Shown here piece by piece: positions 3,510 through 44,130 of a DNA stretch of 64,000 nt. The notes beneath the pieces were generated by a model. It ran no database searches and was not told the DNA's origin. It saw only the letters and a program-made list of their open reading frames with translations. The DNA lies in contig CALSRE010000001.1 in the NCBI GenBank assembly GCA_943788675.1, forward strand, positions 595,573 through 659,572, written 5' to 3'. The position numbers and the translations under genes were made by a program. Positions within the stretch are counted from its first letter, which is position 1; every line of letters begins with the position of its first letter. The stretch is from an uncultured bacterium. Lineage in GTDB: Bacteria; Fidelibacterota; Marinisomatia; Marinisomatales; Marinisomataceae.

Positions 3510-4556
3510 ATGGGGTTAGAAAACTATATTCCGCAACAAATGTTAATTTGGATTGAGCCACTAGCTACAATTGCTTTGGGTCTAGTGCTAGGATCAATTT
3601 TTAAGAAATTTTTAGTATCCAGGCTAAAATCTCTTTCGTTGAAAAATGATTGGGAAAGTGATGATGTTATTATTAATGCTATTGATTCTGTTATAGTATT
3701 TTGGTTTTTTCTAGCTTTTTCCACTATTGCAATAGGAAATGCTAACTTACCTGGCCCAGAAGACTTATATCAGAAAATTATTTCAGCTTTTTTAATTATT
3801 TCAATAAGTTTTACATCATCTAAAATTGTGCTTGGGTTATTAGATGTATGGTCTAAAACTAATAAATCTCTTCCATCAACAGGTATTTTTAAAGGGTTAA
3901 CAAATTTTGCTATTTTTTCTTTAGGTATTTTATTTATTCTCCAATCGTTTGGAATCTCAATTACTCCTCTTATTACAGCATTAGGAGTGGGAGGATTAGC
4001 TGTATCATTAGCCTTAAAAGATACTTTATCTGATTTATTTGGAGGAATTAATATATTATTGAGCAAAACAATGCAAGAAGGTGATTATGTTCAGCTTGAT
4101 AATGGTTACCAAGGGTATGTTGAAAATGTAGGATGGAGATATACAACCATCAGAGAGAGAGCAAATAACATTATTTCCATTCCAAATTCTGTATTGTCTG
4201 GTTCTATTTCAAAGAATTTTTCATCGATGGATTCCGCCTTTAGAGTTCCAATTCAAATTGGCGTTTCATACGACAGCGATCTTGATCATGTTGAAAAAGT
4301 CGCTTTAGAGGTGGCAAATGATTTATATGAAAATCTTGATTGTATAAGCAAATCCTATAAGCCAGCTATTAGATTTAGAGAATTTGCAGATTCTAGCATA
4401 AACTTCTTTATATATTTTCAGGGCAAAAACTTTGGTGATCACAATACTATTCTCAATAGTTATATAAAAAAATTACATAAAAGATTTAGAGAAGAAAAAA
4501 TTGATATTCCTTACCCAATAAGAACTTTGATTCATAAAAATGAAATTAAGAATTAA
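3510..4556 (+). CDS. mechanosensitive ion channel family protein (MscS-like)
   Basis: 348 aa with N-terminal TM helices. It has an MscS pore-helix-like GVGGLAVSLALKDTLSDLFGG followed by a beta-domain (GDYVQL...GYVENVGWRYTTIR). Confidence 0.85.
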   Translation: MGLENYIPQQMLIWIEPLATIALGLVLGSIFKKFLVSRLKSLSLKNDWESDDVIINAIDSVIVFWFFLAFSTIAIGNANLPGPEDLYQKIISAFLIISISFTSSKIVLGLLDVWSKTNKSLPSTGIFKGLTNFAIFSLGILFILQSFGISITPLITALGVGGLAVSLALKDTLSDLFGGINILLSKTMQEGDYVQLDNGYQGYVENVGWRYTTIRERANNIISIPNSVLSGSISKNFSSMDSAFRVPIQIGVSYDSDLDHVEKVALEVANDLYENLDCISKSYKPAIRFREFADSSINFFIYFQGKNFGDHNTILNSYIKKLHKRFREEKIDIPYPIRTLIHKNEIKN

Positions 4557-4977
4557 AGCTTTTAACAATCGATCTAAAGAATTATACGAGAATCATTCAC
4601 ATTTTCATTCTGGCGATGCTGGATTAGACTTATTTGTCGTAGAAGATCAAATTATTCCTGCAAGAAGTACTCAACCCATTCCTTTACAAATTGCTTGTGA
4701 GAATTTAGATAATAAAGCATATTATTTATTTCCCAGGTCGAGTATATCCAAAACTCCATTAAGGTTAGCAAATTCAATTGGTTTAATCGATGGCGGTTAT
4801 AGAGGAGAGCTTATTGGGATGGTTGATAATATTTATGATAAAGATTTTCATATCAAAAGAGGAGAGCGATATTTTCAGTTAGTTGCAGTAGATAGCTCTC
4901 CAATCGAATTTGAACTAGTAGATAATCTATCTGAGTCTAGTCGAGGAGAAGGCGGATTTGGAAGCACTGGAAGATAA
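4540..4977 (+). CDS. dut: dUTP diphosphatase
   Basis: 145 aa with trimeric dUTPase motifs GDAGLDL, PRSS, GLIDGGYRGE and C-terminal RGEGGFGSTG. Confidence 0.9.
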   Translation: MKLRIKAFNNRSKELYENHSHFHSGDAGLDLFVVEDQIIPARSTQPIPLQIACENLDNKAYYLFPRSSISKTPLRLANSIGLIDGGYRGELIGMVDNIYDKDFHIKRGERYFQLVAVDSSPIEFELVDNLSESSRGEGGFGSTGR

Positions 4978-5035
4978 TTTATATTTCATTTGATATTTTT
5001 GCTAGTAGACTATAAAATTGTCATACTTAAAATGA

Positions 5036-5054
5036 GCGAAAATGCCATTTTTGC
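5036..5054 (+). promoter_or_regulatory. imperfect inverted repeat GCGAAAATG-C-CATTTTTGC, candidate regulator or enhancer-binding-protein site upstream of groES
   Basis: The 9-nt arms match 8/9 as reverse complements. The centre lies about 46 nt upstream of the GG of the sigma-54 -24 element. Confidence 0.3.
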
Positions 5055-5089
5055 ATACAAATATGTCAGAAATATTAAGATTTTGTATA

Positions 5090-5105
5090 TGGCACGTTTT
5101 TTGCA
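5090..5105 (+). promoter_or_regulatory. sigma-54 (RpoN) type -24/-12 promoter upstream of groES-groEL
   Basis: TGGCAC-GTTTT-TTGCA exactly matches the consensus TGGCAC-N5-TTGCA on the coding strand. It lies 44 nt upstream of the groES ATG, and an AAGGA SD sequence sits in between. Confidence 0.55.
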
Positions 5106-5148
5106 ATTATAGCATTAGTAGTTAATTAACATAAAAAAGGATAAAAAA

Positions 5149-7112
<1,964 letters not shown>

Positions 7113-7141
7113 TTTAGGCTAGTTGATGCTAAAATAAATAC

Positions 7142-7169
7142 AAAAAACCCTCTATATTGAGGGTTTTTT
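7142..7169 (+). terminator. rho-independent terminator after groEL
   Basis: AAAAAACCCTC-TATATT-GAGGGTTTTTT. A GC-cored stem with A/T extension is followed by a T-run, 30 nt after the groEL stop. Confidence 0.8.
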
Positions 7170-7186
7170 GTTTGTAAAATACTAAT

Positions 7187-12255: not shown

Positions 12256-13056
12256 ATGGCAACAAAAATAAGACTTAAAAGAATTGGTCGAAGAAATAGA
12301 CCTTTTTACAGAATAATTATCATTGATTCTAGAAAAAGAAGAGATGGATCTGCTATTGAGCAAGTAGGTTGGTATAATCCTATTGAAGTAAACAAAGAAT
12401 CAAATTATAATTTAAAAGAAGATAGAATTATTGATTGGCTTAAATTAGGCGCTCAAGTTACTGATCCAGTAAAAAAATTAATGAAAAGATCTGGACTTGC
12501 TCTTAGATGGCATTTAATGGGTCAGGGATTATCAGATGAAGATATCAACAAAGCTGTTGCTGAGTGGAAAAAAGATAGAGATAAAGTAATCCAAGATAGA
12601 ATTAAGGCTGTAAAAGCTAAAAAAGAAAAAGCTCAAGCTGAAAAAGCAGCAGCTAATGTTGCTGAAGAAGCACCAGCTGAAGAACCTAAAGAAGAAGCTC
12701 CTGTAGAAGAAGCTCCTGCTGAAGAAGCACCAGCTGAAGAAGCTAAAGAAGAAGCTCCTGCTGAAGAAGCTAAAGAAGAAGCTCCTACTGAAGAACCTAA
12801 AGAAGAAGCTCCTGCTGAAGAACCTAAAGAAGAAGCTCCTGTAGAAGAAGCTCCTGCTGAAGAAGCACCAGCTGAAGAACCTAAAGAAGAAGCTCCTGTA
12901 GAAGAAGCTCCTGCTGAAGAAGCACCAGCTGAAGAAGCTAAAGAAGAAGCTCCTGCTGAAGAAGCTAAAGAAGAAGCTCCTGTACTGAAGAAGCTAAAGA
13001 AGAAGCTCCTGCTGAAGAAGCACCAGCTGAAGAACCTAAAGAAGAAGCTCCTGTAG
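12256..13056 (+). CDS. rpsP: 30S ribosomal protein S16 with a long acidic E/A/P/K repeat extension (frame break inside the repeat)
   Basis: Canonical S16 core MATKIRLKRIGRRNRPFYRIII...GWYNP. The C-terminus is EEAPA/EEPK/EEAK repeats. After nt 12983-12986 the ORF switches to a K/L-rich frame and stops at 13056. The acidic repeat continues in another frame to a TAA at 13122-13124. Confidence 0.9.
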   Translation: MATKIRLKRIGRRNRPFYRIIIIDSRKRRDGSAIEQVGWYNPIEVNKESNYNLKEDRIIDWLKLGAQVTDPVKKLMKRSGLALRWHLMGQGLSDEDINKAVAEWKKDRDKVIQDRIKAVKAKKEKAQAEKAAANVAEEAPAEEPKEEAPVEEAPAEEAPAEEAKEEAPAEEAKEEAPTEEPKEEAPAEEPKEEAPVEEAPAEEAPAEEPKEEAPVEEAPAEEAPAEEAKEEAPAEEAKEEAPVLKKLKKKLLLKKHQLKNLKKKLL

Positions 13057-13115
13057 AAGAAGCTCCTGCTGAAGAACCTAAAGAAGAAGCTCCTGTAGAA
13101 GAAGCTCCTGCTGAA
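12655..13115 (+). repeat. coding tandem repeat (12/15-nt units GAAGAAGCTCCTGCT / GAAGAACCTAAA, with a higher-order 195-nt duplication)
   Basis: 12670-12783 is identical to 12865-12978 (114 nt). A third partial copy starts at 13020, offset by 155 nt and therefore out of frame by 2. Confidence 0.9.
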
Positions 13116-13160
13116 GACAAATAATTACTATTTAATAAATCTATTTAGTTAAAAGATTTT

Positions 13161-42238: not shown

Positions 42239-42311
42239 GCCGGTGTAGCTCAGTTGGTAGAGCAGCTGATTTGTAATCAGCGGGTCGGGGGTTCAAATCC
42301 TCTCGCCGGCT
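42239..42311 (+). tRNA. tRNA-Thr (anticodon TGT)
   Basis: Manual cloverleaf. Acceptor stem GCCGGTG/CGCCGGC, D-arm GCTCAGTTGGTAGAGC, anticodon loop TTTGTAA, T-loop TTCAAAT. CCA is not encoded. Confidence 0.9.
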
Positions 42312-42385
42312 CAGTTTTTAGGGGCATAAGCTAGGTATTTGAAAATTTTTTTTGATCTTACTATCAGGATTGAGTAAGGGATTTC

Positions 42386-42468
42386 GGGCAAATGGCCGAG
42401 TGGTTAAAGGCAGCAGACTGTAAATCTGCCGACGTAAGTCTACGGAGGTTCGAATCCTTCTTTGCCCA
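42386..42468 (+). tRNA. tRNA-Tyr (anticodon GTA), long variable arm
   Basis: Acceptor stem GGGCAAA/TTTGCCC, anticodon loop CTGTAAA, a long variable arm and T-loop TTCGAAT. Confidence 0.9.
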
Positions 42469-42476
42469 CAGGATTT

Positions 42477-42549
42477 GCGAGTGTAGCTCAGTTGGTAGAG
42501 CATCAGCCTTCCAAGCTGAGGGTCGCGCGTTCGAATCGCGTCACTCGCT
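42477..42549 (+). tRNA. tRNA-Gly (anticodon TCC)
   Basis: Acceptor stem GCGAGTG/CACTCGC, anticodon loop CTTCCAA, T-loop TTCGAAT. Confidence 0.9.
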
Positions 42550-42557
42550 CAATAATT

Positions 42558-42630
42558 GCCTGCGTAGCTCAGTAGGTAGAGCACTTCGTTGGTAACGAAG
42601 AGGTCACCGGTTCAATCCCGGTCGTAGGCT
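42558..42630 (+). tRNA. tRNA-Thr (anticodon GGT)
   Basis: Acceptor stem GCCTGCG/CGTAGGC (one G-U pair), anticodon loop TTGGTAA, T-loop TTCAATC. Confidence 0.9.
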
Positions 42631-42676
42631 CAAAAAAAGAAAATTAAAAATTGTATAAAAACAAGGAGATAACATA

Positions 42677-44039: not shown

Positions 44040-44113
44040 AGGTGAGTAGCTCAATTAGGTAGAGCATCGGTCTCCAAAACCGGGGGTTGCGGGTTCAATT
44101 CCTGCCTCACCTG
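44040..44113 (+). tRNA. tRNA-Trp (anticodon CCA)
   Basis: Acceptor stem AGGTGAG/CTCACCT, anticodon loop CTCCAAA, T-loop TTCAATT. It is in the classical position before secE-nusG. Confidence 0.9.
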
Positions 44114-44130
44114 CGAATGAAGGAAAAAAA

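Follow-up and report, generated by a model that had tools for sequence, protein, structure and literature searches.

A candidate sigma-54-type promoter, downstream of a conserved sigma-70-type promoter, before groES-groEL in a ∼1-Mb Marinimicrobia (SAR406) genome

In Flavobacterium psychrophilum, sigma-54 (SM4) promoters drawn from mapped 5′ ends precede groES-groEL, lon, dnaK, grpE-dnaJ, htpG, skp and clpB (PMC9723704). The groS start site at 867211 carries a sigma-54 posterior of 1.0 and a leader of 30 nt (PMC9723704, supplementary table), its promoter has the core TTGGCATAATTTCTGAAAAG (tabulated sequence aaatgtcagttttaaatccTTGGCATAATTTCTGAAAAG), and the promoters of lon (ATGGCACAATCCTTGA), clpB (TTGGAATAACAATTGA) and skp (TTGGCACGATAGTTGA) are of the same form (PMC9723704). 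A comparison from 2025 reports that the predicted sigma-54 targets of Bacteroidota and Planctomycetota are enriched in GroEL, GroES, DnaK, DnaJ, GrpE and IbpA, and states that groES of Bacteroides thetaiotaomicron is sigma-54-dependent (PMC12316311), whereas in Bradyrhizobium japonicum groESL3 is a known RpoN-dependent operon (PMC4842269). The initial annotation of the locus described here had called RpoN control of groESL unusual, which, in view of these reports from Flavobacterium, Bacteroides, the Bacteroidota and Planctomycetota at large and Bradyrhizobium, was overstated. A literature search on sigma-54 in Marinimicrobia found no paper linking the two. To our knowledge, heat-shock control in the FCB (Fibrobacteres-Chlorobi-Bacteroidetes) superphylum involves no sigma-32, HrcA is missing in many of its lineages, and the records of chaperone genes under sigma-54 are recent and confined to Bacteroidota. 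The present finding extends this FCB-group wiring to the Marinimicrobia and is not novel in kind; a canonical version of the promoter in this ocean lineage, abundant and for the most part uncultured, would carry the scheme to a second phylum.

The locus lies in a 64-kb stretch of DNA, analysed as a whole and referred to below as the window, from a Marinimicrobia (SAR406) genome of ∼1.0 Mb and ∼30% G+C. The exact GroES sequence of the window recurs on many marine contigs (e.g. ena:ERZ10646082:contig_13994, 1,000,632 bp), contigs of the GroES cluster reach 1.05 Mb, and the GroEL shares 81% identity with its counterpart in a Neomarinimicrobiota MAG, the next matches (∼70%) being from Ignavibacteria, Bacteroidota and related groups. 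The upstream gene order is murE-murF-mraY-ispG-mscS-dut-groES, and the gene coordinates confirm that the dUTPase gene (dut, 4540-4977) is followed by a gap of 171 nt before groES, as had been noted initially. The features of the gap and of the operon are listed below by window position.

4990-5018, + strand: sigma-70-type promoter P1 (distal), with −35 TTGATA at 4990-4995, a 17-nt spacer and −10 TAAAAT at 5013-5018
5036-5054, no strand: imperfect palindrome GCGAAAATG-C-CATTTTTGC, arms 5036-5044 and 5046-5054
5046-5057, + strand: conserved block CATTTTTGCATA, including the right arm of the palindrome; candidate activator half-site
5090-5105, + strand: putative sigma-54-type promoter P2, TGGCACGTTTTTTGCA, recognised by its uniqueness, its conservation and its likeness to the F. 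psychrophilum groS promoter
5116-5148, + strand: predicted 5′ untranslated region of P2, 33 nt, with Shine-Dalgarno sequence AAGGAT at 5137-5142
5149-5448, + strand: groES, 99 aa, open reading frame with Pfam Cpn10; protein cluster named GroES of Candidatus Marinimicrobia/Neomarinimicrobiota
5460-7112, + strand: groEL, 550 aa, open reading frame with Pfam Cpn60_TCP1
7140-7171, no strand: G+C-rich hairpin with flanking A and T runs, 3′ of groEL, reported by the terminator scan on the − strand

The stem of the hairpin is symmetric (AAAAAACCCTC...GAGGGTTTTTT) and should therefore act on the + strand too, so that this element is probably a two-way terminator at the end of the operon. All long open reading frames of the window are on the + strand, the GC skew is positive throughout (0.13-0.27), and the gene order is highly compact and runs through the tuf-secE-nusG-rplKAJL-rpoBC-str-S10 cluster, consistent with a streamlined genome of ∼1 Mb. 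Four tRNA genes (Thr, Tyr, Gly, Thr) stand before tuf at 42239-42631, and a tRNA-Trp gene after it at 44040-44114. The ribosomal protein S16 gene (12256-13117) has a long C-terminal EEAPA/EEAKE repeat tail with a 27-nt period and ∼16 copies; the called length differs by strain (181, 266, 330 and 414 aa), and the KKLL-type frame in which the tail ends in the window points to a frameshift inside the repeat. In L164 and L176 (ena:ERZ10645735:contig_14492), murE, murF, an SMC-like gene, ftsK, tuf and rplA are split into pieces in a manner that looks like frameshift error of long-read assembly rather than biology.

P2 is composed of TGGCAC at 5090-5095 (the −24 element), the spacer GTTTT at 5096-5100 and TTGCA at 5101-5105 (the −12 element), with the key dinucleotides GG at 5091-5092 and GC at 5103-5104, all on the coding strand of groES. 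The 16-mer agrees with the sigma-54 consensus TGGCAC-N5-TTGCW at 11 of 11 specified positions and in its exact spacing, begins at −59 and leaves 43 nt to the groES ATG (5149), so that the exact motif described in the initial annotation is confirmed in its coordinates. TGGCAC-N5-TTGCA occurs once on the two strands of the 64-kb window, against 0.01 expected from dinucleotide shuffles of the window (a match in 1 of 100 shuffles), in agreement with the earlier estimate that chance would produce it far less than once per window. No second sigma-54 site with fewer than two mismatches is found in ∼79 kb (the window and 15 kb beyond it in the same genome). The RpoN-type promoter reading proposed at the outset is also supported, with specified bases that are conserved, a workable distance to groES and a layout like that of the mapped promoters of a related phylum. 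These sequence traits support the view that the 16-mer at 5090-5105 behaves like a functional sigma-54-type promoter.

Relatives were collected by a metagenome scan with GroES, which returned 80 loci (L081-L160). In L081 (GroES 99% identical) the promoter is identical to that of the window, and in L082 and L083 (GroES 82% identical) the motif TGGCACATTTTTTGCA stands at −57 with 11 of 11 specified bases kept; compared with the window motif, one unspecified spacer base is changed, while the flanks have diverged and include an 11-nt indel. The alignment of the window with L082/L083 leaves four conserved islands, namely the P1 hexamers, CATTTTTGCATA at 5046-5057, the sigma-54 motif and the ribosome-binding region. 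Within the species of the window, 11 strains show no variable site in 5039-5148 (110 nt) and five in 4978-5038 (61 nt), with ∼2% variable sites in the genes that flank the gap. In L084-L094 (GroES 69-78% identical, same dut-groES order) the sigma-54 motif is entirely absent, and no groES promoter can be recognised other than a sigma-70-type one ∼45 nt ahead of the ATG. It follows from these loci that the sigma-54 element is evolutionarily labile, and that either an insertion of ∼90 nt brought in this element and the upstream block, or L084-L094 have lost both by deletion. The alignment of groES upstream regions that had been suggested with the initial annotation thus gives a divided result, the motif being kept in L081-L083 and in the 11 strains and lost from view in L084-L094, and the left arm of the palindrome being unconserved.

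P1 is the top sigma-70-like match of the region (10/12 positions). Its hexamers align with TTGTAA-17-TAAAAT of L082/L083, have a counterpart, TTGATA-17-TAAAAT, in L085-L094, and are free of within-species variable sites. Judged by these alignments, the DNA upstream of groES is a two-promoter region, with a conserved sigma-70-type P1, which was absent from the initial annotation, and a sigma-54-type P2. The palindrome at 5036-5054 exists as first described, with GCGAAAATG and CATTTTTGC complementary at 8/9 positions, but the regulator or enhancer site proposed for it is not supported: when the 171-nt gap is shuffled by dinucleotides, 817 of 2000 shuffles (41%) hold an equal or better inverted repeat, as do 81 of 374 tiles of the same size cut from the window. 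Strains of the species differ in the left arm, at 5037 and 5038, and L082/L083 have in its place a differently spaced repeat, TGCAAAAA-N16-TTTTTGCA. The palindrome is thus probably not a functional unit in itself. It was also rejected as a dut terminator, having no T-run after it and being unreported by the terminator scan. The block CATTTTTGCATA, in turn, is shared without change by the window, L081, L082 and L083, amid adjacent bases that differ, and lies ∼59-70 nt upstream of the predicted P2 start site. Its distance to the −24 element (5058-5089 in the window) differs by the 11-nt indel between the window and L082/L083; this is about one helical turn, so that block and −24 element would keep facing the same side of the DNA. 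The groES upstream region yielded no convincing binding site for an activator, and the block is a candidate only.

The P2 start site is placed at 5116 ± 1 from the usual distance of 12 nt after the −12 C. RNA structure in the predicted leader is not significant (z = −0.76), and Rfam gives no credible match, the one hit being a eukaryotic lncRNA on the opposite strand at chance level (17.4 bits, where the gathering score is 50); an RNA thermometer and any known RNA element were both rejected for the leader on these two results. TGTCAG at 5064-5069 resembles a TGTCAG that many Bacteroidota carry 13-20 nt before the −24 element, and was rejected for the window as a shared upstream element, not being conserved in L082/L083. 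A sigma-32-like reading, CTTAAA-N13-CCATTTTT (5026-5052), was likewise rejected, its −35 part being unconserved in L082/L083 and sigma-32 being unexpected in the group. CIRCE (TTAGCACTC-N9-GAGTGCTAA), which the initial annotation had described as lacking before groES, is indeed absent, and from the whole 64-kb window even with up to three mismatches allowed.

Across SAR406, the pattern TGG[CTA]A[CT]-N5-TTG[CT] is present on the coding strand in 22 of 61 dereplicated groES upstream regions (0.17 expected from shuffles) and on the opposite strand in none of the 61. A clear CIRCE is found in at least 13 of the 61, and the two elements occur together in none. CIRCE and sigma-54-like elements therefore alternate among SAR406 lineages (CIRCE, e.g. 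in L096, L099-L102, L104 and L107; the sigma-54-like motif, e.g. in L001, L116, L133-L137, L151 and L159), and the sister group of the window, L084-L094, has neither. The elements of these loci (L081-L160 and L001) lie ∼−60 to −165 from the ATG. Such exclusivity is what alternative elements of heat-shock control would be expected to show, and the either/or distribution within one phylum suggests repeated turnover of heat-shock control. Reading the degenerate SAR406 motifs as sigma-54 elements is supported by F. psychrophilum, whose mapped sigma-54 promoters include −12 variants with GT or GA; for some of the SAR406 motifs, an extended −10 sigma-70 reading is possible. In the L001-type clade (L001, L116, L133-L139, L151, L159 and others), a second promoter of the sigma-70 type, TTGAAA-N17/18-TAnnTT, is seen at ∼−95 to −60, directly followed by a G+C-rich run, CGCCGCCGC, which stands in otherwise AT-rich DNA and resembles a stringent-response discriminator.

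In the FCB group, TGGCA[CTA]-N6-[TC]G was sought at −150 to −30 of groES and is present in 48 of 77 species loci (0.36 expected), and CIRCE precedes groES in 14 of the 77 (Ignavibacteria, Chlorobi and similar groups). The two coincide only in L004 (a Balneolales MAG), where the core TGGCACGAATTGTGAA stands beside a CIRCE-like half, TTGGCACTC, at ∼−76 from the groES ATG; this may be a transitional or dual-control arrangement. The motif class is enriched >100-fold before groES in SAR406 and FCB genomes, a figure that is indicative and carries no formal probability, since the patterns were defined after viewing the data and the sequences are related, so that the enrichment overstates independence. 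In 27 Bacteroidota loci groES is preceded, at a distance of ∼3 kb and on its own strand, by a sigma-54 activator gene; 24 of the 27 have a sigma-54 core before groES. The order miaB, sigma-54 activator, lptE, an unknown gene, secG, groES, groEL is conserved there (L016, L019, L024, L033, L035, L038-L040, L042 and others). The activator of L035 (L035:6250-7536) is PspF-like, with no N-terminal sensor domain, an AAA+ domain at residues 19-185 and a C-terminal Fis-type HTH, and the linked PspF-like protein suggests itself as a candidate regulator for the sigma-54 chaperone regulon of the Bacteroidota.

Motif and tblastn searches for rpoN (RpoN box or homologue) across the window, the adjoining 10 kb on either side and ∼170 comparison loci found none, and no sigma-54 activator gene was found in the window, the same 10-kb flanks or the SAR406 loci examined; the flanks hold ribosomal and cell-wall genes. 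A database search with a Prevotella RpoN query gave only Prevotella proteins among the matches listed, and a scan of viral contigs for rpoN or an activator found nothing. Neighbouring phyla do encode rpoN (Calditrichota, Cloacimonadota, Ignavibacteriota and Bacteroidota); genomes of ∼1 Mb often lose sigma-54. None of dnaK, grpE-dnaJ, htpG, lon and clpB, and no further intergenic sigma-54-like site before other genes, was found in the window or the SAR406 loci examined.

Several other explanations of the 16-mer may be weighed against these data. A small genome of ∼1.0 Mb, sister lineages (L084-L094) that have P1 only and no motif, and ∼79 kb devoid of any other sigma-54-like site would all suit a relic, that is, a formerly functional sigma-54 promoter whose rpoN or activator has since been lost and which leaves groESL to be transcribed from P1 only. 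A relic should decay, yet the specified bases are identical across lineages with diverged flanks, and the stretch of 110 nt that includes P2 is invariant in the 11 strains as against five variable sites in the adjacent 61 nt; we consider this explanation unlikely. It is decidedly unlikely that the likeness to sigma-54 is coincidental and that the conserved 16-mer binds another DNA-binding protein, e.g. a repressor blocking transcripts from P1. The site is placed ∼70-90 nt downstream of the conserved P1, which would fit a roadblock operator, TGGCA-N7-TGCAA is weakly dyad-symmetric, and the sequence searched contained no rpoN or activator gene. Conservation, on the other hand, tracks the positions specified by sigma-54 and not the dyad, TGCAA not being the complement of TGGCA, and the final base of the Bacteroidota TGCC[A/C/T] varies; moreover, the F. 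psychrophilum motif class keeps a fixed distance from mapped start sites, as promoters do, and an 11/11 coincidence is expected only 0.01 times per window.

The motif might instead be part of a sigma-70 promoter of the extended −10 type (TGn followed by a hexamer), a reading that fits relatives such as L130 and L159 (TG-G-TATAAT) and the Flavobacteriia (TG-G-CATAAT) and draws further on a TTGTCA-like hexamer ∼15 nt upstream in many Bacteroidota. In the window, however, the −10 hexamer would be CACGTT, which matches TATAAT at only 2/6 positions, no usable −35 is present and no conserved −35/−10 pair overlapping the site was found. Transcription in F. psychrophilum starts ∼12-13 nt after the −12 element and not 7 nt after CATAAT, and the conserved 3′ half, TTG(C/T/A), would be left with no role, all of which makes an extended −10 promoter very improbable. 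As for a functionless chance occurrence, intergenic DNA is AT-rich and a match arises somewhere in the window in 1 of 100 shuffles, but the 0.01 expected per 64 kb refers to both strands, and the figure drops much further if only coding-strand sites no more than 60 nt from a start codon are counted; with the site conserved in L082/L083 and its class enriched before groES in SAR406 and FCB, chance is extremely improbable.

We therefore favour, with a probability of about three in four, the reading that P2 is a working sigma-54 promoter of groES-groEL with a start near 5116, placed downstream of the housekeeping, sigma-70-type P1. Sigma-54 RNA polymerase would form a closed complex on the GG at 5091-5092 and the GC at 5103-5104, and would start near 5116 only upon remodelling by an ATP-hydrolysing enhancer-binding protein, to give an mRNA with a 33-nt leader. 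P1 (4990-5018), ∼90 nt upstream, would provide basal expression, to which P2 would add stress-inducible expression. By analogy with the Bacteroidota, the activator of P2, which like rpoN would be encoded elsewhere in this genome, may be PspF-like and sensor-less and may respond to protein-folding stress; groESL would then receive a basal and an activator-dependent input, as in that phylum. P2 offers a concrete, testable reason why sigma-54 might be retained in a 1-Mb genome, with current knowledge not overturned, and CIRCE/sigma-54-like alternatives together with P2 in one phylum provide a natural system for the rewiring of a core stress regulon. More speculatively, and with considerable doubt, the ∼1-Mb SAR406 genome might keep sigma-54 and a single sensor-less activator mainly for a protein-quality-control regulon that replaces HrcA-CIRCE, with repeated switching between CIRCE and sigma-54 in the Marinimicrobia and with the activator held by free chaperones as PspA holds PspF. 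If this were true, sigma-54 would be the sigma factor to which heat-shock control was ancestrally assigned in much of the FCB superphylum.

Compared with known systems, the locus is most like groS-groL of F. psychrophilum in having a coding-strand −24/−12 promoter just before groES and no CIRCE, and the leader of 33 nt predicted in the window is close to the 30 nt measured there. The −12 element is the canonical TTGCA in the window, whereas the Flavobacterium heat-shock promoters have CTGA or TTGA, and the window differs further in its extra upstream sigma-70-type promoter and in belonging to another phylum, the Marinimicrobia. The Bacteroidota order miaB-activator-lptE-x-secG-groES is also absent from the window, where murE-murF-mraY-ispG-mscS-dut-groES is found instead; the linkage is an observation of the present analysis and no established defining feature of the system. 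With groESL3 of B. japonicum the locus would share a chaperonin operon under a sigma-54 promoter, but groESL3, whose NifA dependence was reportedly described by Fischer et al. in 1993, exists beside other groESL copies and follows the regulation of nitrogen fixation rather than that of heat shock, whereas the sequence read here has one groESL and no nif context. HrcA-CIRCE controls the same operon through a repressor operator rather than a promoter, and has no CIRCE counterpart in the window. In sister SAR406 lineages CIRCE precedes the groES ATG by ∼110-146 nt, a range shared with the sigma-54-like motifs of the L001 type (∼−125 to −165), as opposed to −59 for the motif of the window. Finally, groESL of Escherichia coli has dual sigma-70/sigma-32 promoters, and the logic of a housekeeping promoter combined with a promoter for an alternative, stress-linked sigma factor would be common to both operons; the alternative factor in the window would be sigma-54, which requires an ATPase activator, whereas that of E. 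coli is a heat-shock factor of the sigma-70 family.
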